The notes below the pieces were generated by a model that worked only from the letters and a program-made list of their open reading frames with translations, ran no database searches and had not been told where the DNA came from. 64,000 nucleotides of DNA from a phage, in sequence record PX092659.1. One strand, given 5' to 3'. Positions 4,952 to 59,489 of the stretch are shown in pieces. A program made the position numbers and the translations under genes. The stretch's first letter is position 1. Each line of letters begins with the position of its first letter.

Positions 4952-6328
4952 ATGACTATTGATATTAATAAGCTGAAAGAAGAACTTGGTCTGGGTGATC
5001 TGGCTAAATCTCTGGAAGGTCTGACCGCTGCTCAGAAAGCTCAGGAAGCTGAACGTATGCGTAAAGAGCAGGAAGAAAAAGAACTGGCTCGTATGAATGA
5101 CCTGGTTTCTAAAGCAGTTGGCGAAGATCGTCAGAAACTGGAACAAGCTCTGGAACTAGTTAAGTCCCTGGATGAAAAATCTAAAAAGAGCGCAGAACTG
5201 TTCGCACAGACTGTAGAAAAACAGCAGGAAACTATTGTTGGTCTTCAGGATGAAATTAAATCTCTGCTGACAGCTCGTGAAGGTCGTTCCTTCGTTGGTG
5301 ATAGTGTTGCTAAAGCACTGTACGGTACTCAGGAAAACTTTGAAGATGAAGTTGAAAAACTGGTTCTGTTATCTTATGTAATGGAAAAGGGCGTATTCGA
5401 GACCGAACACGGTCAAAAACACCTGAAAGCAGTGAATCAGTCTTCTTCTGTAGAAGTTTCTAGTGAAAGCTATGAAACTATTTTCTCTCAGCGTATTATC
5501 CGTGACCTGCAGAAAGAGCTTGTAGTTGGCGCACTGTTCGAAGAACTGCCGATGTCCAGTAAGATTCTTACTATGCTGGTTGAACCGGATGCTGGTAAAG
5601 CTACTTGGGTTGCTGCTTCTACTTATGGTACTGATGCAACTACTGGTGATGAAGTTAAAGGTGCTCTTAAAGAAATCCACTTCAGTACTTACAAACTGGC
5701 TGCTAAGTCCTTCATTACTGATGAAACTGAAGAAGATGCAATCTTCTCCCTGCTGCCACTGCTTCGTAAGCGTCTGATCGAAGCACACGCTGTTTCTATT
5801 GAAGAAGCCTTCATGACTGGTGATGGTTCCGGTAAACCGAAAGGTCTGCTGACTCTTGCTAGTGAAGATAGTGCTAAAGTTATTACTGAAGCTAAAGCTG
5901 ATGGTTCCGTACTGGTAACTGCTAAAACTATCTCTAAATTGCGTCGTAAACTGGGCCGTCATGGTCTGAAACTGAGCAAACTGGTACTGATTGTATCTAT
6001 GGATGCTTACTATGATCTGCTGGAAGATGAAGAATGGCAGGATGTTGCCCAAGTTGGTAATGATGCTGTTAAACTGCAGGGTCAGGTTGGTCGTATTTAT
6101 GGTCTGCCGGTTGTAGTTTCTGAGTACTTCCCAGCTAAAGCTACTTCCGCAGAGTTCGCAGTTATTGTTTATAAAGATAACTTCGTAATGCCACGTCAGC
6201 GTGCTGTTACTGTTGAACGTGAGCGTCAAGCTGGTAAACAGCGTGATGCTTACTATGTTACTCAGCGTGTTAACCTGCAACGTTACTTTGCAAATGGCGT
6301 TGTATCTGGTGCTTACGCTGCATCTTAA
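4952..6328 (+). CDS. major capsid protein precursor
   Basis: 458 aa; N-terminal coiled-coil delta/scaffold-like domain (KLKEELGLGDLAKSLEGLTAAQKAQEAERMRKEQEEKELARMNDL) followed by HK97-fold body; strongly E. coli-optimal codon usage; followed by intrinsic terminator. Confidence 0.9.
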   Translation: MTIDINKLKEELGLGDLAKSLEGLTAAQKAQEAERMRKEQEEKELARMNDLVSKAVGEDRQKLEQALELVKSLDEKSKKSAELFAQTVEKQQETIVGLQDEIKSLLTAREGRSFVGDSVAKALYGTQENFEDEVEKLVLLSYVMEKGVFETEHGQKHLKAVNQSSSVEVSSESYETIFSQRIIRDLQKELVVGALFEELPMSSKILTMLVEPDAGKATWVAASTYGTDATTGDEVKGALKEIHFSTYKLAAKSFITDETEEDAIFSLLPLLRKRLIEAHAVSIEEAFMTGDGSGKPKGLLTLASEDSAKVITEAKADGSVLVTAKTISKLRRKLGRHGLKLSKLVLIVSMDAYYDLLEDEEWQDVAQVGNDAVKLQGQVGRIYGLPVVVSEYFPAKATSAEFAVIVYKDNFVMPRQRAVTVERERQAGKQRDAYYVTQRVNLQRYFANGVVSGAYAAS

Positions 6329-6349
6329 TACAGGCTTTTCAGCCGATAA

Positions 6350-6374
6350 GGAGAGCTTCGGCTCTCCTTTTTTA
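6350..6374 (+). terminator. intrinsic terminator after major capsid gene
   Basis: GGAGAGC-TTCG-GCTCTCC hairpin (UUCG tetraloop) followed by TTTTTTA. Confidence 0.8.
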
Positions 6375-6387
6375 TTGGGAAAAATAA

Positions 6388-6900
6388 ATGCAAATAATCA
6401 CAGCTGAAGACTATAGATTATATGGTGGGTTAAAACGACCTGAACTAGAATCTGGAGTAGAGATGATGATTACTGCTGCCAATGCGCTGATTACTAGCCT
6501 TTTAGGTATGGATGATGCTGATGCGGTAGACCAGTTAATCAATACAAAACCTACTCGTAAAAAATACTTCTTAAGTTCTCCCTCGGCTACTTCAGTAACC
6601 AAAATGACTATTAACGACAAGGAGATAGATCCCGAACAGTATAAGTTGTACTCTGATGGGGTTATACTTCTTAAATTTAATCCTCCGGAAGGTTATATGG
6701 ATGTAGAATACACACAAGGTGGATTTAATCCAATACCTGAGGATCTCAAACTTGCAGCATGTATGCTAGTAGATCATTGGCATAAACAGGATTACCGTCA
6801 AGCTAAAACAATTGGCGGAGAAACAGTTACTTTTAATAATACTAAGTCTGGTATTCCAGAGCATATTCGTACTATTATTGAAGTTTACAGGAGAGTATAA
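6388..6900 (+). CDS. head completion / head-tail adaptor protein (p144-like)
   Basis: 170 aa immediately after capsid gene, synteny with T5 neck module. Confidence 0.5.
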   Translation: MQIITAEDYRLYGGLKRPELESGVEMMITAANALITSLLGMDDADAVDQLINTKPTRKKYFLSSPSATSVTKMTINDKEIDPEQYKLYSDGVILLKFNPPEGYMDVEYTQGGFNPIPEDLKLAACMLVDHWHKQDYRQAKTIGGETVTFNNTKSGIPEHIRTIIEVYRRV

Positions 6901-7667
6901 TGTCTCTTTCTGACTTAGCTACACAAATTATTAAGGAGCAACTAGATACTGCAGGACGATCTGAAAATAATAAGAATACTGTTGTATATTCTGTTGAAAC
7001 AGGATTAAAAGATCCCACTAGAGATGGTACTATTGCTCAAGTATCCTTTAAATTCTCAAAACCTGTATCCCAAGATCTCCTTAATGTTAGGACCGCTTCT
7101 ATTCTAAAAGCAGTTTCTTCTAGCTTAGATCTAACAGGAGACTTAGGTGCTTTAGAAAGTCTTATTCAAGCAACCGCCGGTAAAAAATCCTCTGTAGGTA
7201 AAAAACGTTCTACTGGTAGAGTTCAAGTAAACTTTGGGGATCCTAGAGATGTAGAAGATGGATATTCTGGTGCAGTAACAGGTGCTTCTGGTCGTTTTGT
7301 CTCAAATAGTAATATGAAGGTTATTCTGGAGTTGGTTGCTAAAGAATACTTAATAAAGGATATGAAAAAAGCAGGAGCTCCACTTAAATTTAGAACTGGT
7401 AGATTTGCAAATTCTCTAAAAATTAAAGATGTTATGCTTAGAGATGCAGAGACTAGTAAAGGTGCTCCCGAACTAAACGTGACGTATAATTATATGGTAC
7501 GCCCATATTCTGTATTTAATCCAGCAGTATCTACATATAGAAGATTATCTTTACGACCCTACCCAGGTGCTAGAAATCCACAAAAACTTATTGGTGAGGC
7601 TATAGCAAAAGCTGCAAGAGACCTGATTCACTCTAGATATAAAATCAAGGTTAATCAAGGAACCTAA
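6900..7667 (+). CDS. neck / tail completion protein (p143-like)
   Basis: 255 aa, ATGA-type overlap with upstream gene; synteny only. Confidence 0.45.
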   Translation: MSLSDLATQIIKEQLDTAGRSENNKNTVVYSVETGLKDPTRDGTIAQVSFKFSKPVSQDLLNVRTASILKAVSSSLDLTGDLGALESLIQATAGKKSSVGKKRSTGRVQVNFGDPRDVEDGYSGAVTGASGRFVSNSNMKVILELVAKEYLIKDMKKAGAPLKFRTGRFANSLKIKDVMLRDAETSKGAPELNVTYNYMVRPYSVFNPAVSTYRRLSLRPYPGARNPQKLIGEAIAKAARDLIHSRYKIKVNQGT

Positions 7668-7670
7668 TAA

Positions 7671-8156
7671 ATGGATCATAGAACAAGTATTGCACAAGCT
7701 CTGGTTGACCGTATATCTAAACAGTTGGATGGTTCTCAACCTGACGAATATTTTAATAACCTATATGGAAACGTTTCTCGTCAAACTTATAAATTTGAGG
7801 AAATACGAGAGTTTCCTTATGTGGCAGTTCATATCGGAACTGAAACTGGGCAGTATCTTCCTTCAGGCCAACAGTGGATGTTTTTAGAACTTCCAATCCT
7901 GGTGTACGATAAAGAGAAAACAGACATTCAAGAGCAACTTGAAAAACTCGTAGCGGATATAAAAACCGTCATTGACACAGGTGGAAATTTAGAATATACT
8001 GTTAGTAAACCTAATGGATCGACCTTCCCATGTGAGGCAACTGATATGATCATTACATCAGTTAGTACAGATGAGGGTCTACTGGCCCCATATGGTTTAG
8101 CAGAAATAAATGTAACAGTGAGGTATCAGCCTCCACGTAGGTCACTTCGCAGATAA
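7671..8156 (+). CDS. tail terminator protein (p142-like)
   Basis: 161 aa, located immediately upstream of tail tube gene; size equals T5 p142. Confidence 0.5.
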   Translation: MDHRTSIAQALVDRISKQLDGSQPDEYFNNLYGNVSRQTYKFEEIREFPYVAVHIGTETGQYLPSGQQWMFLELPILVYDKEKTDIQEQLEKLVADIKTVIDTGGNLEYTVSKPNGSTFPCEATDMIITSVSTDEGLLAPYGLAEINVTVRYQPPRRSLRR

Positions 8157-8182
8157 GTTACAGATTAGGAGAAAATAATTAA

Positions 8183-9577
8183 ATGTCTTTACAACTATTA
8201 CGTAATACTCGAATCTTCGTGTCTACGGTTAAGGCTGGTCATAATAAGACCAACACGCAAGAGATTCTAGTTCAGGATGATATTTCTTGGGGTCAGGACA
8301 GTAACTCAACAGATATTACTGTTAATGAAGCTGGTCCGCGTCCAACTCGTGGTTCTAAACGTTTTAATGACTCTTTAAACGCGGCTGAGTGGAGTTTCTC
8401 TACTTACATCCTGCCCTATATCAATAAAGATGATCAGAAGCAAATCGTTCCTGACTATATGTTATGGCATGCACTTTCTAGTGGTAAAGCTATTAACCTA
8501 GAAGGTAATACAGGGGCACACAATAACGAAGCTAACTTCATGGTTAACTTCAAAGATAACTCCTATCATGAGTTAGCAATGTTACATATTTATATCCTGA
8601 CTGATAAAGCATGGAGTTACATCGATTCCTGTCAGATTAATCAGGCAGAAGTTAACGTTGATATCGAAGATATTGGCCGTGTAACTTGGTCTGGTAATGG
8701 TAATCAGCTTATTCCTCTGGATGCGCAACCATTTGACCCAGATGAGTTAGGTATTGATGATGAAACTTATATGACTATCCAGGGTTCTTATATTAAGAAC
8801 AAACTAACGATCTTGAAGATCAAAGACATGGATACCAATAAGTCTTATGATATTCCTATTACTGGTGGTACTTTCACTATTAATAACAACATCACATACC
8901 TAACCCCGAATATTATGTCTCGTGTTAATATTCCAATTGGTTCTTTTACTGGTGCTTTTGAATTAACGGGTTCATTAACTGCTTATCTGAATGATAAATC
9001 TCTTGGTTCTATGGAGCTGTACAAAGATCTTATCAAGACTCTGAAGGTAGTTAACCGCTTCGAAATTGCTCTAGTACTTGGTGGTGAATACGATGAAGAA
9101 CGTCCTGCGGCTATTCTGGTAGCTAAACAAGCACACGTTAATATTCCTACTATTGAAACTGATGATGTACTTGGTACTTCAGTAGAGTTTAAAGCTATTC
9201 CATCTGATCTGGATGCTGGTGATGAAGGTTACCTAGGCTTCTCTAGTAAATATACCAAAACAACTATTAATAACTTGATTGTTAATGGTGATGGTGCTAC
9301 TAATGCTGTAACCGCAATTACTGTTAAATCTGCTGGTGATGCTACTACAGTAAACAACTCGGCTACTCTTCAAATGAGTGTTGAAGTTACTCCTTCTTCC
9401 GCAAAGAATAAGGAAGTTACTTGGGCTATCACTGCCGGCGATGCAGCTACTATCAGTGCAACCGGACTGTTAACAGCAGATGCTAGTAAAACTGGTGCAG
9501 TTACTGTAGAAGCTACTGCTAAAGATGGTTCTGGAGTTAAAGGTACTAAACAGATTACTGTAACAGCAGGTGGCTAA
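8183..9577 (+). CDS. tail tube protein with C-terminal Ig-like domain (pb6-like)
   Basis: 464 aa (same as T5 pb6); C-terminal approx 90 aa (nt approx 9300-9577) is an Ig-like domain (KEVTWAITAGDAATISATGLLTA...TVEATAKDGSGVKGTKQITVTAGG). Confidence 0.75.
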   Translation: MSLQLLRNTRIFVSTVKAGHNKTNTQEILVQDDISWGQDSNSTDITVNEAGPRPTRGSKRFNDSLNAAEWSFSTYILPYINKDDQKQIVPDYMLWHALSSGKAINLEGNTGAHNNEANFMVNFKDNSYHELAMLHIYILTDKAWSYIDSCQINQAEVNVDIEDIGRVTWSGNGNQLIPLDAQPFDPDELGIDDETYMTIQGSYIKNKLTILKIKDMDTNKSYDIPITGGTFTINNNITYLTPNIMSRVNIPIGSFTGAFELTGSLTAYLNDKSLGSMELYKDLIKTLKVVNRFEIALVLGGEYDEERPAAILVAKQAHVNIPTIETDDVLGTSVEFKAIPSDLDAGDEGYLGFSSKYTKTTINNLIVNGDGATNAVTAITVKSAGDATTVNNSATLQMSVEVTPSSAKNKEVTWAITAGDAATISATGLLTADASKTGAVTVEATAKDGSGVKGTKQITVTAGG

Positions 9578-9581
9578 TTAA

Positions 9582-10484
9582 ATGTACTACTCTCTAATGA
9601 GAGAGTCAAAAGTTATAGTTGAGTATGATGGTAGGGCATTTCATTTTGATGCCCTATCAAACTATGATATACAGACTTCCTACGAGGAATTCAAGACTCT
9701 TCGTAGGACTGTTCATCGTAGAACTAACTATGCAGACTCTATTATAAATGCTCAAACCCCCTCTTCTATCTCTTTAGCAGTAAATTTCAGTAATACTCTT
9801 ACTGAGGCTAACTTTTTTGAATGGCTAGGTTTTGATAGAAAAGGTAATACTTTCTTACTCCCACTATATAGTAGTAATATTGAACCTATTATGTTCAATA
9901 TATATATAGTAAATAAAGATAATAACTGTGTATATTTTGAAAACTGTTATGTATCTACAGTAGATTTTTCCTTAGATAAGAACATACCAATTCTTAATGT
10001 TGGTATTGAGTCTGGGAAATTCTCAGAAGTATCCACCTATAGAGAAGCAGCTTCTATTATACAGGGTGAAGTAATGTCTTATAGCCCAGTAATAGCTTCT
10101 ACTAATGGTAGCATCTTACCCGGTCTTATCTCTGCCTCTTTATCTTTCCAGCAGCAGTGCTCTTGGAGAGAAGATAAGAGTGTTTTTGATATAAATAAAA
10201 TTTATAATAATAAAAGAGCTTATGTAAATGAAATGAATGCTTCGGCAACCATTTCTCTATATTACTTAAAACGTTTTGCAGGAGATATGGTTTACAATAT
10301 CGAACCGGAGACAGATGTACCTTTAAATATAAGAAATAATAATATTTCTATAGATTTTCCTTTAGCACGTATTACAAAACGCCTAGATTTCTCAGATGTG
10401 TATAGAGTTGAGTGGGATATTATACCTACTGCTTCTTCAGACCCAGTGAGAATAGATTTCTTTGGAGAAATTAAAAATGATTAA
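9582..10484 (+). CDS. tail structural protein (p140-like)
   Basis: 300 aa, AT-rich, between tail tube and chaperone-position ORFs; synteny only. Confidence 0.4.
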   Translation: MYYSLMRESKVIVEYDGRAFHFDALSNYDIQTSYEEFKTLRRTVHRRTNYADSIINAQTPSSISLAVNFSNTLTEANFFEWLGFDRKGNTFLLPLYSSNIEPIMFNIYIVNKDNNCVYFENCYVSTVDFSLDKNIPILNVGIESGKFSEVSTYREAASIIQGEVMSYSPVIASTNGSILPGLISASLSFQQQCSWREDKSVFDINKIYNNKRAYVNEMNASATISLYYLKRFAGDMVYNIEPETDVPLNIRNNNISIDFPLARITKRLDFSDVYRVEWDIIPTASSDPVRIDFFGEIKND

Positions 10485-10881
10485 TTTAAAAGATATTACC
10501 CTTGATACTCGTACTGTTACTCTTTCCTACCCAGGTATGCCGAACTTTAAATTAGAACTTAACTATATGTCTCGTGCTACCTCTAAACGTGTTATTTCTT
10601 CTGCTAAACGCGATGAATGGGTTAATGGTACTTTGATTCAGGTACAGGATGATGATAAGTTCATTGAAGCCTTCGTTGACGCAGCTATTAAAGGTTGGAC
10701 CGGTTTGACTGTAGGTGACGTTGAAAAACTGATGCTGATTGAAACAGATGCTGATCCTGCTACTGAAGTTCCTTTTAGCCGCGATAATGCTGTAATGCTC
10801 ATGCAGAATTCTGCTGCGTTTGATTCTTGGATCAACCAGACAGTGTTCCACTTAGACACTTTTCGTAGCCCAAAAGCGTAA
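10477..10881 (+). CDS. putative tail assembly chaperone
   Basis: Small acidic ORF upstream of tape measure gene; ATG 10477 with SD GGAG 9 nt upstream (track ORF starts at TTG 10462). Confidence 0.4.
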   Translation: MINLKDITLDTRTVTLSYPGMPNFKLELNYMSRATSKRVISSAKRDEWVNGTLIQVQDDDKFIEAFVDAAIKGWTGLTVGDVEKLMLIETDADPATEVPFSRDNAVMLMQNSAAFDSWINQTVFHLDTFRSPKA

Positions 10882-10942
10882 AGAACTCCTAGATGCTGTT
10901 GCTGATTTTGCAGATAAGTGTATTAAAAGCTCAGCATCTAAA

Positions 10943-11311
10943 ATGACTAAACAACAATATTTAATACTTTGTGAATCAATGGGTATAGAGCCTGATCCTA
11001 AGGCTATGCCTGTTGAACTTGAAGACTTTCCACCTATTGTAGCTATTAGTATGAATATTTATAATAGTCTAATTGACTGTTTCATACCTGGTGACTTTCC
11101 TATTTTTATAGGTAAAGACAAAGCTGCTTTAGGTGTTTTATTTGATATTTATGGGATTACTGATCCTATAGAAAAAGAATTCGTTCTACACATTATCAAT
11201 ATATTTGATGCTAAAGCTGTAGATGCTGCACGTAAACGTGCCGAGAAGCATAAACCGCAAAACGGAAGGATTCCTAACGTTAAGCCACATGCTAGATCTC
11301 GTGCACGGTAA
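10943..11311 (+). CDS. putative tail assembly chaperone
   Basis: 122 aa, immediately upstream of tape measure gene; followed by terminator. Confidence 0.4.
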   Translation: MTKQQYLILCESMGIEPDPKAMPVELEDFPPIVAISMNIYNSLIDCFIPGDFPIFIGKDKAALGVLFDIYGITDPIEKEFVLHIINIFDAKAVDAARKRAEKHKPQNGRIPNVKPHARSRAR

Positions 11312-11346
11312 AAGTTTCCTCCAATGGGCGTTCCACGATGAGGCTT

Positions 11347-11378
11347 GGCTCTGGGTGATTTGCCCAGAGCTTTTTTAT
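11347..11378 (+). terminator. intrinsic terminator
   Basis: GCTCTGGG...CCCAGAGC hairpin followed by TTTTTTATT; directly followed by conserved GGGAAAAATAAA element and TMP start. Confidence 0.7.
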
Positions 11379-11393
11379 TGGGAAAAATAAAAT

Positions 11394-14300
11394 ATGACTG
11401 ATAAGCTAATACGAGAATTATTAATAGACGTTAAACAGAAGGGGGCGACTCGTACTGCAAAGTCTATTGAAAACGTAGCTGATGCATTAGAGAACGCTGC
11501 TGCTGCTTCTGAACTAACAAATGAACAGTTAGGTAAAATGCCCAGAACTCTATACTCCATTGAGAGGGCAGCAGATAGAGCAGCAAAAAGTCTTACTAAA
11601 ATGCAAGCTAGTAGGGGTATGGCTGGTATCACTAAATCCATTGATGGTATTGGTGATAAGCTAGATTACCTGGCTATCCAACTTATTGAAGTAACAGATA
11701 AACTAGAAATTGGATTCGATGGAGTTTCTAGATCTGTTAAAACAATGGGCAATGATGTTGCAGCTGCAACAGAGAAAGTTCAAGATAGGTTATACGACAC
11801 TAATAGGGCTTTAGGAGGTACGGCTAAAGGCTTTAATGATACTACTGGTGCTGCTGGTAGAGCTTCTAGAGCTATTGGTAATACTTCTGGTTCGGCACGT
11901 GGGGCTACCCGTGATTTTGCAGCAATGGCTAAGATCGGTGGTAGTTTACCTATTATGTATGCAGCTCTTGCTTCCAACATCTTCGTTTTGCAATCTGCAT
12001 TCGAACAACTTAAACTAGGTGATCAGCTAAATCGTCTAGAAAAATTTGGTGTTATAGTGGGTACTCAGACAGGTACTCCTGTTCAGTCCCTTGCTAGATC
12101 CCTACAAGAAGCAGCCGGGTACGCTATTTCCTTTGAAGAAGCTATGAGACAAGCATCCTCTGCTTCTGCATACGGTTTTGATGCTGAACAACTTAATAAA
12201 TTTGGTCTAGTAGCTCGTCGTGCTGCTGCTGTTCTTGGCGTTGATATGACTGATGCACTTAACCGTGTAATTAAGGGTGTATCTAAACAGGAAATAGAAC
12301 TTCTGGATGAACTTGGTGTTACTATTCGTCTTAATGATGCTTATGCTGATTACGTTAAGCAGTTAAATGCTGCAAACACAGGTATAACATATAATATTAA
12401 CAGCCTTACTACTTTCCAGAAACAGCAGGCGTATGCTAATGCTGTTATAGCAGAGTCTACTAAACGTTTTGGCTACTTAGATGAAGTTTTACGCGCTACT
12501 CCATGGGAGCAGTTTGCCGCTAATGCTGATGCCGCACTGAGAAAGATTCAGCAGGCTGCTGCTAAGTACTTAGGGCCAGTAATTGATGCTATCAACACAG
12601 TATTTTATACTTCTCAGGCTTCTGTATCTGCGGAGGCAGCTAGAGCTCAAGAAAAAACCAATAGACAGATAGACCCTACCAACGTTGGTGCTGTTGCTTT
12701 AAGTTTAACTGCTTCTGAAGAAGGCTATAATAAAGCTCTAGATATGTATAAGGAATCTCTTGATAAGCGTAATAAGCTAAAATCTGAGTTCGATAAACGA
12801 ATGGAACAAGCAGATTTCTATACAAAACTAGCTATACGTCAAGTTGGTGAAGGTATTCCTGTTGGTCTTGCAGCAGCAGGTGCTTCGGAGGCCAATAAGC
12901 AATTTGTAGCAGAAACTGCAGCTATGGGTCTACAAGTAACTAGACTTGGTAAGGAAGTAGAGGATTCTACTGAAAACCTTAATGCCTGGAAATCAGCGTA
13001 TCAAGCTGCTGGAGCTGCTGCTGCAAAAGCTAACCCCGAGTTTCAGAAGCAAATTAATCTACAGAGAGATACTACTGATCCTGATGCTGTATACGATTTT
13101 AACTCTACTGTATTAAAAGGACTAACCGAGCAGCAGAAAGCGTACAATCAGACTAAGAAAACTGCTAGTGACTTAGCTAATGATATACAGAACGTTGCTC
13201 AGAATACAGATACTGCTGCTAAAACTAGTGCTACTTTAGCAGATGCTATAAAAAACATAGAATCTCTATCTCTAGGTACGGGTAAAAGTGCAGATGAGTA
13301 TGTTAAAAATCTTAATTTAGGCTATAATACGTTATCTGAGATGAAAACTGCTTCTCAGGCCTTGTCCGAGTATGTTAAACTAACTGGTAATGAAACTAAA
13401 AATCAGTTAGCAGTTCAACAGAAAATAGCCGATGTGTATAATCAAACTAAGGATAAGGAAAAGGCTCAGGAAGCTGGTAGACGTTTAGAGTTGCAACAGT
13501 TAGAAGAGCAAGAAGCTGCTTTACGCCGTGTTCTTCAAACAAACCAGGGAAATAAAGCTGTTGAAAAAGAAATTGAAAAAATTCAGCTGGAGAAGCTTAA
13601 ACTTACTAATCAGGGTATGGAAGCCCAGAAGAAGGTTAAAGATTACACAGATAAAATTCTTGGTGTAGATCGTGAGATAGCTCTTCTGAATGACCGCACT
13701 ATGACTACTACTCAATATAGATTAGCTCAGCTAAAACTAGAACTAACTATAGAGAAAGAGAAGTACGAATGGTATACAAAACAAGCGGACAAACAGAAAG
13801 AGGCAGAACAGTCTAGACGTGCTCAAGCACAAATAAGTAGAGAAATATGGGAAGCGGAGAAACAGGCAACTGCCTCACATGTATCAGCTCTCATGGATGC
13901 GCTAGAGGTCAGTCAAACGCAGAGGAATGTTACTGGTCAATCTCAAATTCTTACTGAAAGATTATCCATTCTGCAGCAACAGCTGGAGCTGTCTAAGGGC
14001 AATACTGAGGAAGAAATTAAATATCGTAATGAGATTTATAAAACTTCGGCGGCCTTAGAGCAGCTTAGAAAACAGAGAGATACCCAGATGCAGCAACAGG
14101 TGGGATCTTCTGTAGGTGCTGTATATACTCCTACAACTGGACTATCTGGGGAGGATAAAGATTTTGCTGATATGCAAAATAGAATGGCCTCCTATGATCA
14201 GGCAATCTCTAAACTATCTGAGCTAAACTCTGAAGCAACCGCTGTAGCTCAAAGCATGGGTAACCTAACTAATGCTATGATTCAATTCTCTCAGGGATCT

Positions 14301-15074
14301 TTAGATACTACATCTATGATTGCTTCCGGTATGCAGACCGTAGCCTCTATGATTCAATATAGTACTAGTCAACAGGTTAGTGCAATTGATCAGGCTATTG
14401 CAGCAGAACAGAAACGTGATGGTAAATCAGAAGCATCTAAAGCTAAGTTGAAGAAGTTGGAAGCTGAAAAGTTGAAGATTCAACAAGACGCAGCTAAGAA
14501 GCAGATCATCATCCAAACTGCAGTAGCTGTAATGCAGGCGGCGACAGCTGTACCGTACCCATTCTCTATTCCTTTGATGGTGGCAGCAGGTTTGGCAGGT
14601 GCCTTAGCTCTTGCTCAAGCATCTTCTGCATCTGGTATGTCTTCTATTGCAGATTCTGGAGCTGATACCACTAGTTATTTAACTCTTGGAGAGCGTCAGA
14701 AGAACATTGATGTATCTATGTCTGCTAATGCTGGAGAACTATCTTATGTACGTGGTGATCAAGGTATTGGTAATGCTAATTCATTTGTGCCGCGTGCCGA
14801 AGGTGGTAATATGTACCCAGGGGTTAGCTATCAGATGGGAGAACATGGTACAGAAGTAGTTACACCTATGATTCCTATGAAAGCTACACCTAATGATGAG
14901 TTAAAAAATTCCTCTAATTCAACTTCAGGAAGACCTATCATCCTGAATATTAGTGCTATGGATGCTGCTAGTTTTAGAGAGTTCGCCTCTAGTAATAGCG
15001 GTGCTCTGAGGGATGCAGTAGAATTAGCTCTGAATGAAAATGGTGCTAGCCTAAAAACACTAGGAAATTCTTAA
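11394..15074 (+). CDS. tape measure protein (pb2-like)
   Basis: 1226 aa, long alpha-helical/coiled-coil protein, Ala/Gln/Lys rich; hydrophobic segment AVAVMQAATAVPYPFSIPLMVAAGLAGALALAQA near C-terminus; canonical position. Confidence 0.9.
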   Translation: MTDKLIRELLIDVKQKGATRTAKSIENVADALENAAAASELTNEQLGKMPRTLYSIERAADRAAKSLTKMQASRGMAGITKSIDGIGDKLDYLAIQLIEVTDKLEIGFDGVSRSVKTMGNDVAAATEKVQDRLYDTNRALGGTAKGFNDTTGAAGRASRAIGNTSGSARGATRDFAAMAKIGGSLPIMYAALASNIFVLQSAFEQLKLGDQLNRLEKFGVIVGTQTGTPVQSLARSLQEAAGYAISFEEAMRQASSASAYGFDAEQLNKFGLVARRAAAVLGVDMTDALNRVIKGVSKQEIELLDELGVTIRLNDAYADYVKQLNAANTGITYNINSLTTFQKQQAYANAVIAESTKRFGYLDEVLRATPWEQFAANADAALRKIQQAAAKYLGPVIDAINTVFYTSQASVSAEAARAQEKTNRQIDPTNVGAVALSLTASEEGYNKALDMYKESLDKRNKLKSEFDKRMEQADFYTKLAIRQVGEGIPVGLAAAGASEANKQFVAETAAMGLQVTRLGKEVEDSTENLNAWKSAYQAAGAAAAKANPEFQKQINLQRDTTDPDAVYDFNSTVLKGLTEQQKAYNQTKKTASDLANDIQNVAQNTDTAAKTSATLADAIKNIESLSLGTGKSADEYVKNLNLGYNTLSEMKTASQALSEYVKLTGNETKNQLAVQQKIADVYNQTKDKEKAQEAGRRLELQQLEEQEAALRRVLQTNQGNKAVEKEIEKIQLEKLKLTNQGMEAQKKVKDYTDKILGVDREIALLNDRTMTTTQYRLAQLKLELTIEKEKYEWYTKQADKQKEAEQSRRAQAQISREIWEAEKQATASHVSALMDALEVSQTQRNVTGQSQILTERLSILQQQLELSKGNTEEEIKYRNEIYKTSAALEQLRKQRDTQMQQQVGSSVGAVYTPTTGLSGEDKDFADMQNRMASYDQAISKLSELNSEATAVAQSMGNLTNAMIQFSQGSLDTTSMIASGMQTVASMIQYSTSQQVSAIDQAIAAEQKRDGKSEASKAKLKKLEAEKLKIQQDAAKKQIIIQTAVAVMQAATAVPYPFSIPLMVAAGLAGALALAQASSASGMSSIADSGADTTSYLTLGERQKNIDVSMSANAGELSYVRGDQGIGNANSFVPRAEGGNMYPGVSYQMGEHGTEVVTPMIPMKATPNDELKNSSNSTSGRPIILNISAMDAASFREFASSNSGALRDAVELALNENGASLKTLGNS

Positions 15075-15081
15075 AACTGGA

Positions 15082-15109
15082 GGAGGACTTTGAGTCCTCC
15101 TTTTCTTTA
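15082..15109 (+). terminator. intrinsic terminator after tape measure gene
   Basis: GGAGGACTTTGAGTCCTCC hairpin followed by TTTTCTTTA. Confidence 0.75.
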
Positions 15110-15127
15110 TGGAAAAATAAAAATTTC

Positions 15128-15156
15128 TTGATAAAATTTTCTAATACTATTATAAT
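15128..15156 (+). promoter_or_regulatory. sigma70-type promoter upstream of pb9-like gene
   Basis: TTGATA (15128-15133), 17-bp spacer, TATAAT (15151-15156); SD AAGAGGAG and ATG at 15184. Confidence 0.6.
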
Positions 15157-15183
15157 AATTGTATCTAAGAGGAGAAATTAACT

Positions 15184-15798
15184 ATGAGATTACCAGACCC
15201 ATACACGAATCCAGAACTTTCAGGATTAGGATTCGAAAGTGTTAACCTGATTGATAATGACCCAGTAATTCGTGATGAGTTACCAAATGGTAAAGTTAAC
15301 GAAGTTAAGGTATCTGCTCAATACTGGGGTATAAATATTTCTTATCCAGAATTATTTCCAGATGAATATAATGTTCTAGATGCTTTTATTCTAGAATACA
15401 AAAGGACTGGTAGTTATATAGATGTTATATTACCACAATACGAAGCTTTTAGAGTTAGAGGTAATACTAGTCTAGTAAATATACCTGCTGGACAGAAGGG
15501 TTCTAATATAACTATGGATACAAAAGGACTTCTTATCGGTACTCCAAAACCAGGGGATCTATTTAAGCTATCTAACCATCCAAAAGTATATAAAATAACA
15601 TCATTCAATAAATCAGGTAATACGTGGTCTATAAACTTATATCCTGATTTATTTATAACTACTACTGGGGCTGAGAAACCCATATTTAACGGAATACTAT
15701 TTAGAACAAAACTCATGAATGGTGATGCTTTCGGATCTACATTAAATAATAACGGAACATATTCCGGCATCTCATTAAATTTACGGGAAAGTTTATGA
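15184..15798 (+). CDS. distal tail protein (pb9-like)
   Basis: 204 aa, identical length to T5 pb9, directly downstream of TMP. Confidence 0.7.
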   Translation: MRLPDPYTNPELSGLGFESVNLIDNDPVIRDELPNGKVNEVKVSAQYWGINISYPELFPDEYNVLDAFILEYKRTGSYIDVILPQYEAFRVRGNTSLVNIPAGQKGSNITMDTKGLLIGTPKPGDLFKLSNHPKVYKITSFNKSGNTWSINLYPDLFITTTGAEKPIFNGILFRTKLMNGDAFGSTLNNNGTYSGISLNLRESL

Positions 15799-23765: not shown

Positions 23766-25496
23766 ATGGTAACTAAAACAGTAATTCCTACGGATATTAC
23801 AAAACTTAAAAATGAGTCACTTAACAAGAATAATAATTTAAGTGACTTAGCAGACCGTGCAGCAGCATGGTTAAATGTGCGTCCTATTGGGTCCACCCCT
23901 CTTGCGGGGGATCCTGTTGGGGACTATGATGCCGCAACTAAACGTTGGGTAGAGAATAAGATTAACACTGGTACAGTCGGTCCTACTATGAACGGCGTTA
24001 TGAATTACGGGGTTGGTGATTTCCACCTTCGAGATAGTCGTGCGTATATCCAACCGTACGAAGTGGTTTCTGACGGTCAATTACTGAATCGTGCAGACTG
24101 GCCTGAACTCTGGGCATACGCTCAAATGGTTGGTGTTATAGAGGATTCCGTATGGTTAGCGGATAAATTTCAGCGTGGTAAGTACTCATCTGGGGATGGG
24201 ACAACAACCTTTCGTGTTCCAGATAAGAATGGGGTGCAGGAGGGATCAATACGTGCTCTTTATGGCCGTGGAGATGGTGGGAATAGTGGTGCAAATGGGC
24301 AACTGTTCGAATCCGCTGCGCCTAATATTACAGGTTTTTTCACCACTTATGCCTCTCAAACCTACGGCCAAGTATTAGGTCAAACAGGTGGTTGTTTTAA
24401 TGCAAACAATAATGCTTTCCCTGACGGAAGAGGTGACGGAATCCCACCAGGAAGTACAGCTCTTTCTGGACGTTATAACACCTGTGACTTCAATGCTTCA
24501 ATTTCAAGTCCGATTTATGGCGCATCCACTGATGAAATCCTTACGCGCAACTTTGTCGGTGTGTGGGTAATCCGCGCGTCGGGGGGATTCGTTGCTGCAA
24601 ATACATCATGGAGTGTTATTAACGCTGATAAAACAACTCCCAATTCAGGTGTTGTTGTTTTTGGTGGCAGTGTTAAATCTGAATATAAATCACCCGGTGC
24701 AAATGTAACAGCGGAACTAAAATCAAGTAAAGTAATTAATGGCGCATGGGGTGTTAGCTTAACTATAACAGATGATAGAGGGATCCCTGTAAGCATTAAG
24801 TATGACAGTAATGGTCAGTTTTCAACATCTCATAGGCCATCTGGAGTCGGTACTGGGAGTTCCTATACTCATTGCGCTTATCGCGCGCCAGACTGGTGGA
24901 ATAACACAGCATATAGTGCCTTCGTACCAATTCTTGGAGGTGGTAGCGGTAACTCACTAAAGAACTATAGATCTTTTGCTTGTTTTGGACAAATATCTTA
25001 TCCTGATTCTAGTAATAGTTATCCTAGAGCTGCAATTGCTCAAGTAAGGGATTGGGCACTACCAGATGGTGAACAAGGTAACGGCAAGAGTATTACCGTG
25101 TTTACGTTTATTGATAATTCATTTGACCTTCAATATGGGTACAACGATGGTTCGCTAAACTATATTTTTTCAAAATCTCCAATTTGTGATGAAAGATTAA
25201 AGAAAAATATTGAATCCATTGATACTAATATTGCAATAAGTAATATTAAGCAGATGTTATATAAATCATACATCTATAAAAATGACGAGAATGAACAGGT
25301 GCGCCGTGGTTTTATAGCTCAGGATTTACAGAAAATAGATCCCCAATATGTGCGGGAATATGGAGATCCTGGAAGAGAGAAAACGTTGGCCATTGATGAA
25401 AACGTTATGTTGCTTGATTCAGTTGCTGCGGTTAAGTGGCTTATTAATAAAGTTGAGGAGTTGCAAGAAGAAATAAATGTATTGAAAGCTAAGTAA
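23766..25496 (+). CDS. ltfB: tail fibre protein with phage-tail-collar domain and C-terminal intramolecular chaperone domain (LtfB-like)
   Basis: 576 aa; N-terminal region with collar-domain-like segment (LNRADWPELWAYAQ...TTFRVPD); C-terminus RRGFIAQDLQKIDPQYV...LAIDENVMLLDSVAAVKWL matches S74-type intramolecular chaperone/autoprotease module. Confidence 0.7.
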   Translation: MVTKTVIPTDITKLKNESLNKNNNLSDLADRAAAWLNVRPIGSTPLAGDPVGDYDAATKRWVENKINTGTVGPTMNGVMNYGVGDFHLRDSRAYIQPYEVVSDGQLLNRADWPELWAYAQMVGVIEDSVWLADKFQRGKYSSGDGTTTFRVPDKNGVQEGSIRALYGRGDGGNSGANGQLFESAAPNITGFFTTYASQTYGQVLGQTGGCFNANNNAFPDGRGDGIPPGSTALSGRYNTCDFNASISSPIYGASTDEILTRNFVGVWVIRASGGFVAANTSWSVINADKTTPNSGVVVFGGSVKSEYKSPGANVTAELKSSKVINGAWGVSLTITDDRGIPVSIKYDSNGQFSTSHRPSGVGTGSSYTHCAYRAPDWWNNTAYSAFVPILGGGSGNSLKNYRSFACFGQISYPDSSNSYPRAAIAQVRDWALPDGEQGNGKSITVFTFIDNSFDLQYGYNDGSLNYIFSKSPICDERLKKNIESIDTNIAISNIKQMLYKSYIYKNDENEQVRRGFIAQDLQKIDPQYVREYGDPGREKTLAIDENVMLLDSVAAVKWLINKVEELQEEINVLKAK

Positions 25497-25503
25497 AAGA
25501 AAA

Positions 25504-25545
25504 CCCCAGAGGGCTATCCCTCTGGGGTTTATTATTATTATTTAT
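25504..25545. terminator. bidirectional intrinsic terminator between convergent late and early modules
   Basis: CCCCAGAGGGCTATCCCTCTGGGG hairpin flanked by A-run upstream and TTTATTATTATT downstream; lies between stop of ltfB (+) and stop of dut (-). Confidence 0.8.
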
Positions 25546-59462: not shown

Positions 59463-59489
59463 GGAGATCTTCGGGTCTCCTTTTTCTTT
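59463..59489 (+). terminator. intrinsic terminator after nrdA
   Basis: GGAGATC-TTCG-GGTCTCC hairpin followed by TTTTTCTTT. Confidence 0.75.

Follow-up and report, generated by a model that had tools for sequence, protein, structure and literature searches.

The closest described system is phage T5, whose database record (NC_005859) lists putative rho-independent terminators at three junctions homologous to those discussed here (101563-101586, 96553-96587, and 92087-92113). The same record places promoter P-G25 directly after the terminator that separates the tape-measure and distal tail genes and promoter P-J5 within the gene preceding the tail-tube gene, and the GenBank record of phage BF23 marks the start of the tail-tube (gp25) mRNA at a site homologous to P-J5. 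The late promoters of T5 are strong sigma-70 promoters (PMC7472727). Compact junctions between a terminator and a ribosome-binding site (RBS) that act as attenuators within operons are also familiar from phage structural gene clusters, for example as a partial terminator behind the major capsid gene by which transcript ratios are set; in such junctions stop codon, GC-rich hairpin, U-tract, Shine-Dalgarno (SD) sequence, and ATG follow one another within ~20-25 nt, as they do here. In T5, structural proteins are needed in very different copy numbers: hundreds for the major capsid protein (MCP), ~120 for the tail-tube protein, ~12 for the head-completion protein, and 3 for the tape-measure protein. 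We found no transcript map or transcript 3'-end data for the T5 late region in the searchable literature.

The window analyzed here is a 64-kb stretch of phage DNA. In BLAST searches, its region 5500-12500 matched 548 phage records, with Escherichia phage OSYSP as the top match (95%), and by its sequence the source phage is a T5-like member of Tequintavirus (Demerecviridae). The late genes and promoters relevant to this analysis are as follows.

4952-6328, + strand: MCP gene, stop codon at 6326-6328
6388-6900, + strand: head-completion ORF, T5.148 homologue
Between the head-completion and tail-tube genes, + strand: tail completion gene, then tail terminator protein gene
7972-8000, + strand: sigma-70 promoter equivalent to P-J5, TTGACA-17-TATACT, from a promoter scan and T5 annotation
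8183-9577, + strand: tail-tube gene, with a minor tail gene next
10477-10881 and 10943-11311, + strand: two chaperone ORFs, tail-chaperone stop codon at 11309-11311
11394-15074, + strand: tape-measure ORF, T5.140 homologue
15128-15156, + strand: sigma-70 promoter equivalent to P-G25, TTGATA-17-TATAAT, 11/12 match, driving the distal tail protein gene
From ATG 15184, + strand: distal tail protein gene

We refer to the MCP/head-completion junction as J1, the chaperone/tape-measure junction as J2, and the tape-measure/distal tail junction as J3. As a side observation on this gene order, the second chaperone ORF (10943-11311) has practically no SD in 10918-10942 (-0.1 kcal/mol), which is consistent with translation of this ORF solely by frameshift extension of the first one, as for lambda G/GT.

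The 21-mer TTTTTTATTGGGAAAAATAAA is present as an exact match at 6368-6388 and 11371-11391 on the + strand. The preliminary description had placed the same element after terminator hairpins at these positions, and our terminator scan found both hairpins. Each exact copy begins at the last base pairs of a strong hairpin (6348-6369 and 11347-11371, respectively). At J1 the head-completion ATG (6388) shares the final A of the element, and at J2 the tape-measure ATG (11394) lies 2 nt past it. No further match with three or fewer mismatches was found within the 64-kb window, and 100 dinucleotide shuffles gave an expectation of 0.02 matches at that threshold, so this occurrence is far above chance. 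The parts of the three junctions are listed below.

6348-6369, + strand: J1 terminator hairpin AAGGAGAGC-TTCG-GCTCTCCTT, 20 nt past the MCP stop codon, from the terminator scan, fold -13.6 kcal/mol
6368-6376, + strand: J1 U-tract TTTTTTATT; a T-tract is kept here in all relatives
6377-6380, + strand: J1 weak SD, GGGA; GGAG or GGAGG in Vibrio and other relatives
6381-6390, + strand: J1 A-rich spacer AAAATAA and head-completion ATG
11315-11346, + strand: conserved non-coding block TTTCCTCCAATGGGCGTTCCACGATGAGGCTT, downstream of the chaperone stop codon and upstream of the J2 hairpin
11347-11371, + strand: J2 terminator hairpin GGCTCTGGGTG-ATT-TGCCCAGAGCT, after the chaperone stop codon, fold -17.4 kcal/mol, annotated as a terminator in T5
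11371-11396, + strand: J2 21-mer and tape-measure ATG, with U-tract 11371-11379, SD GGGA 11380-11383, and spacer 11384-11393
15079-15103, + strand: J3 terminator hairpin, after the tape-measure stop codon, -13.5 kcal/mol, annotated as a terminator in T5
15101-15121, + strand: J3 variant TTTTCTTTATGGAAAAATAAA, 4/21 mismatches to the 21-mer, without an adjoining ATG

The 21-mer is a composite and not a single unit: a terminator U-tract, the weak SD GGGA, and an A-rich spacer leading up to the ATG. Its first 9 nt are the U-tract TTTTTTATT at both J1 and J2, and the remaining 12 nt make up the next gene's translation initiation region. We put the probability at about 85% that the element is simply the U-tract of an intrinsic terminator adjoining an ordinary translation initiation region. 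The marks of intrinsic termination are a GC-rich stem-loop past the stop codon at all three junctions, a U-tract of ~7-9 nt, and, for the J2 hairpin, compensatory changes in 4/9 pairs across six lineages. A J1 hairpin was seen by eye in every lineage, the automatic alignment of J1 being poor. The three corresponding junctions of T5 have homologous hairpins and T-tracts, and from the J1 hairpin to the ATG the sequence is identical to that of T5. An SD initiation region is indicated at J1 and J2 by position, by complementarity, and by the SD sequences of relatives. The anti-SD duplex of GGGA has an energy of -4.2 kcal/mol at both sites and ends 6 nt (J1) or 9 nt (J2) before the AUG, so that the two sites rank near the weak end of the late genes, whose duplexes with the 16S 3' end span -4.0 to -9.3 kcal/mol. 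A hairpin formed by the U-tract and A-tract within the 21-mer, with the SD in its loop, folded no better than shuffled sequences (-1.5 kcal/mol, z = -0.07) and was rejected. Searches of the whole window against Rfam gave no match at gathering thresholds, and the only two matches within 6000-15400 had E = 2.7 and 4.1.

If the 21-mer is a terminator tail followed by an RBS, most RNA polymerases would stop at the U-tract formed by the first 9 nt (UUUUUUAUU), with the hairpin immediately upstream, and would leave abundant hairpin-protected mRNA for high-copy upstream proteins: MCP upstream of J1, and the tail tube, minor tail protein, and chaperones upstream of J2. The remaining polymerases, a minority, would read through, and the next genes would be carried on those transcripts alone. 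Because no promoter lies between terminator and gene, expression after J1 (head completion, tail completion, tail terminator) and after J2 (tape measure) would come only from read-through, and both terminators must be leaky; the term attenuator in the preliminary description is a fair inference to this extent. The P-J5 and P-G25 equivalents would restore transcription for the tail-tube and distal tail genes, respectively. Since the former does so ahead of the tail-tube gene, J1 read-through is needed only for the three genes in 6388-8156. On the read-through RNA, a ribosome would load independently at a U/A-rich, structure-free leader with a weak SD, and these weak SDs would help to keep the output of the low-copy head-completion and tape-measure proteins low. 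The T5 copy numbers quoted above fit a combination of partial terminator and weak SD. The hairpins end ~20-23 nt before the AUG, roughly where the 5' edge of a 30S footprint would fall, so the junctions would be about as compact as possible.

Translational re-initiation, which had also been suggested, is unlikely given the 60 nt (J1) and 83 nt (J2) that separate the upstream stop codon from the ATG and the stable hairpin within that stretch; judged by their sequence, J1 and J2 look like independent ribosome-binding sites. The U-tract had further been described as fused to the next translation start at all three sites, with the ATG 0 to 5 nt after the element. This is correct for two of the three, the exception being J3, where the ATG follows 62 nt downstream.

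Relatives were sampled in three ways, by taking BLAST hits spread over the identity range, by a pattern search anchored upstream of J2, and by an MCP-anchored search that was blind to the element. In nearly all readable Demerecviridae lineages, J1 and J2 share one layout, namely a hairpin, 5-7 T followed by (A)TT, a purine block, an A/T-rich spacer, and the ATG; the exceptions have a homing-endonuclease gene or another gene inserted at the junction. In Tequintavirus and Epseptimavirus this block reads GGGA; Klebsiella and Proteus phages have GGGT or GGAA there, and Vibrio and metagenomic relatives show GGAG, GGAGG, GAGG, or AAGGA at an unchanged offset (for example, TTTTTTATTGGAGGTAATAAAATG in JSF12 and TTTTTATTGGAGGTAGCCAATG in L246). 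The GGG of the 21-mer aligns with a canonical GGAGG in JSF12, D425, and L246 and thus occupies the canonical SD position of these relatives, where the anti-SD duplex is predicted at -10.6 (JSF12) and -11.1 kcal/mol (D425), compared with -4.2 kcal/mol at J1 and J2. What relatives conserve is therefore the generic T-tract, SD, and A-rich spacer only, and this, together with the endonuclease gene that splits the element in T5, speaks against the single element that had been proposed.

Closer to the source phage, conservation is much tighter. Against T5, DaisyDussoix, JNwz02, and STWB21, the intergenic regions are 98-100% (J1) and 94-99% (J2) identical, compared with 59-79% at third codon positions in the flanking genes, which points to strong purifying selection on both intergenic regions. 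The 21-mer is no more conserved than the remainder of these regions. Among 28 close genomes found via MCP, it is exact at J1 in 24, at J2 in 23, and at both in 19, and a copy at a third place was found in none. The variants are 1-nt changes in the T- or A-run, GGG to GG, or TTGGG to TTATTAGG, and all retain the RBS; TTATTAGGAAAAATAAATG and TTGGAAAAATAAATG are among those with RBS character kept. Exactness in 24/28 and 23/28 genomes is nevertheless tighter than generic T-tract, SD, and spacer constraints strictly require. As a separate observation, the T-run of J1 is lengthened to 23 T in DaisyDussoix (L004) and to 13 T in another genome (L020/L197), with the remaining element unchanged. These runs are either real slippage or an assembly artefact, and they indicate that the distance from hairpin to RBS is not strictly fixed.

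Homing-endonuclease genes separate the parts of the junctions. In T5 (L003, reverse complement) and IrisVonRoten, such a gene lies at J2 exactly between TTTTTTATT and GGG. The T-tract remains with the terminator, and the tape-measure gene starts from GGAAAACATTAGATG (...CAGGAAAACATTAGATG), which overlaps the endonuclease stop codon. The two halves can thus exist apart, and these phages do without an intact J2 copy. The endonuclease gene instead lies between the MCP stop codon and the J1 terminator in SelmaRatti and in three metagenomic genomes, whose J1 tail is TTGGAAAAATAAATG or TTATTAGGAAAAATAAATG. More generally, homing-endonuclease genes recur as insertions at J1 and J2 among T5-like phages (L195 at 6362-7159; L196 at 1112-1681; J1 of L207, L215, and L245).

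The layout itself is common in unrelated phages: of 65 tails that follow the generic UUCG hairpin of J1 in unrelated viral contigs, 16 have hairpin, T-tract, SD, and ATG within 36 nt. The number of positions shared by these unrelated tails is 9.2 ± 2.0 of 21 and at most 16. Identity at 21/21 positions compared with at most 16/21 therefore needs shared origin and/or tight selection, since membership in the same functional class is not sufficient by itself. Most likely, to judge from the relatives, the identity of the two tails reflects an old similar start sequence (TTTTTTATTGG at both junctions in several genera) that has been kept by strong purifying selection. What distinguishes the present case from other compact terminator/RBS junctions is that two junctions of one genome share an identical 21-nt tail; in T5 itself the J2 copy is split by the endonuclease gene, and the annotation is silent on the shared tail. 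The feature is otherwise ordinary and largely known, given the existing T5 annotation of the terminators and the frequency of the layout, and the exact identity is a minor curiosity. It illustrates the packing of a terminator and the following RBS into ~45 nt in T5-like phages, adds little else beyond the annotation, and may help in engineering T5-like phages or in re-using compact, well-conserved terminator/RBS cassettes.

Recent copying or gene conversion between J1 and J2, with tails or whole terminator modules acting as a repeated cassette, is a rather unlikely source of the identity. Terminator modules are indeed re-used within the genome: the 18-nt core of the J1 hairpin, GGAGAGCTTCGGCTCTCC (6350-6367, + strand), recurs at 43689-43672 (- strand), and close variants differing by one pair are found at 39897-39880 (- strand) and 59463-59480. 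That two exact tails sit behind two different hairpins would also fit copying. The changes seen in individual lineages, however, follow orthologous junctions (GGGT at J1 of Klebsiella and Proteus phages; GGAAAAA at J2 of Klebsiella phages, L226, and L063/L071), and the presence of TTTTTTATTGG at both junctions in several genera makes the similarity old. Concerted evolution of J1 and J2 was rejected on the same pattern, as derived changes that track orthologous junctions are the opposite of what it predicts.

Both junctions also carry conserved sequence ahead of their terminators. The J2 block TTTCCTCCAATGGGCGTTCCACGATGAGGCTT is kept at the nucleotide level across Demerecviridae genera, including Vibrio phages (L007, L008, L009, L011, L225, L226, L228, L231); within it, UUUCCUCC...GAGG is present in nearly all lineages and GGGCRTTCCACGA in most. 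At J1, a small hairpin, GGCT-TTTC-AGCC (6333-6347, + strand), stands ahead of the terminator, with a conserved GCCGA(T/A)A motif behind it; in relatives the hairpin site reads GGCTAATAGCC, GGCAATATGCC, or GGC-N6-GCC, so that J1 too has a conserved element before its terminator. Folding predicts that the J2 block (11315-11346) can form a CCUC/GAGG hairpin or, in read-through RNA, pair with the U-tract and GGGAA. No covariation was found for the CCUC/GAGG stem, both strands of which are invariant, so the test carries no information, and the upstream block had no Rfam match. Across relatives, the unpaired probability of the SD ranged from 0.2 to 0.66 with no consistent pattern, which rules out consistent SD sequestration. 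If the J2 SD does pair with the upstream block, the tape-measure RBS may carry a layer of control beyond the simple model. We think it quite unlikely that the frozen J1 and J2 intergenic regions, comprising the 21-mer and the upstream blocks (especially UUUCCUCC...GAGG), form a dedicated module controlling read-through, translation, or both for the low-copy head-completion and tape-measure proteins. Were this so, the routes could be anti-SD pairing that masks the tape-measure RBS or a phage factor that modulates termination late.

A more specific proposal, that the 21-mer is an operator at which an RNA-binding factor or a cis- or trans-acting anti-SD RNA (e.g., the UUUCCUCC block) co-regulates translation of head completion and tape measure in the manner of a translational repressor, strikes us as very unlikely. 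It would account for an identity of 21/21 far above that of unrelated terminator tails, for the near-invariance of the element across 28 close genomes whose third codon positions have diverged, and for the ability of the J2 SD to pair with conserved upstream UUCC motifs. Yet the entire intergenic regions are equally frozen and not the 21-mer specifically, distant relatives keep generic features only while the A-rich half varies freely, and the A run tolerates 1-nt indels. Moreover, T5 and IrisVonRoten are viable without an intact J2 copy, and the pairing with the upstream block lacks covariation support.

A role as a late promoter or transcription-start element, which was part of the original proposal, is highly improbable. 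TTGGGA in the 21-mer matches 4/6 of a -35 hexamer, and the similar J3 sequence lies just upstream of a real promoter. At the exact copies, however, the sequence 16-18 nt downstream offers only TCACAG (J1) or GATAAG/ATAAGC (J2), neither an acceptable -10, and both the promoter scan and direct reading found no -35/-10 pair with 16-18 bp spacing at or just after either copy. An ATG 0-2 nt past the element would also give a transcript without the RBS of its gene. The known late promoters of T5 (strong sigma-70 promoters; PMC7472727) and BF23 are ordinary sigma-70 promoters annotated elsewhere.

J3 differs from the two exact copies in this respect. The variant that had been reported at 15101-15121 is real and follows the hairpin at 15079-15103, but with 4/21 differences it is not another copy of the element: it is a terminator tail (with U-tract TTTTCTTTAT) joined to an A/T-rich tract at about -62 to -42 of P-G25, and the next ATG (15184) lies past this sigma-70 promoter. 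The variant is conserved at 21/21 positions in T5, DaisyDussoix, JNwz02, and STWB21, and among the MCP-anchored relatives J3 is a terminator plus a promoter in every lineage. The stretch GGAAAAATAAAAATTT, at about -53 to -38, is a candidate for the UP-element-like A/T-rich tract of a strong T5 sigma-70 promoter, judged solely on where it lies and on its composition, and relatives are likewise A/T-rich upstream of the J3 promoter. Any such likeness is confined to this imperfect third copy, since neither exact copy has a promoter.

Outside T5-like phages, the exact 21-mer was found in three contigs (two independent phages) that have no detectable proteins in common with the window. Control 21-mers of the same composition gave 9 and 1 matches in the viral contig collection, so three contigs are at background level, and we rejected the idea that the 21-mer is a wider mobile motif. 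These background matches (1-9 for controls, 3 unrelated contigs for the real 21-mer) would fit a chance likeness of two low-complexity, A/T-rich stretches. That reading has next to no probability, however, with an expectation of 0.02 in the window even with three mismatches and with both copies at equivalent functional positions, and retention in ~24/28 related genomes refutes it at least within T5-like phages.

Two of the outside contigs, L016/L047 (IMG/VR 3300032255_000005 and 3300032254_000181), carry the exact 21-mer after a different hairpin, AAAAGCCGCTTTTAAGCGGC, directly before a tape-measure-like gene. This case is within chance expectation according to the control searches, yet its functional context is the same. 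The GGAGAGCTTCGGCTCTCC hairpin is a generic terminator present in >120 unrelated viral contigs, and within the window the UUCG-tetraloop hairpin is re-used in late and early regions with a different tail each time. Finally, a very strong (~-22 kcal/mol) bidirectional terminator, ACCCCAGAGGGCTATCCCTCTGGGGT, lies at 25478-25528 (both strands) on the boundary of late (+) and early (-) genes and is the counterpart of the 'efficient bidirectional terminator' annotated in T5.
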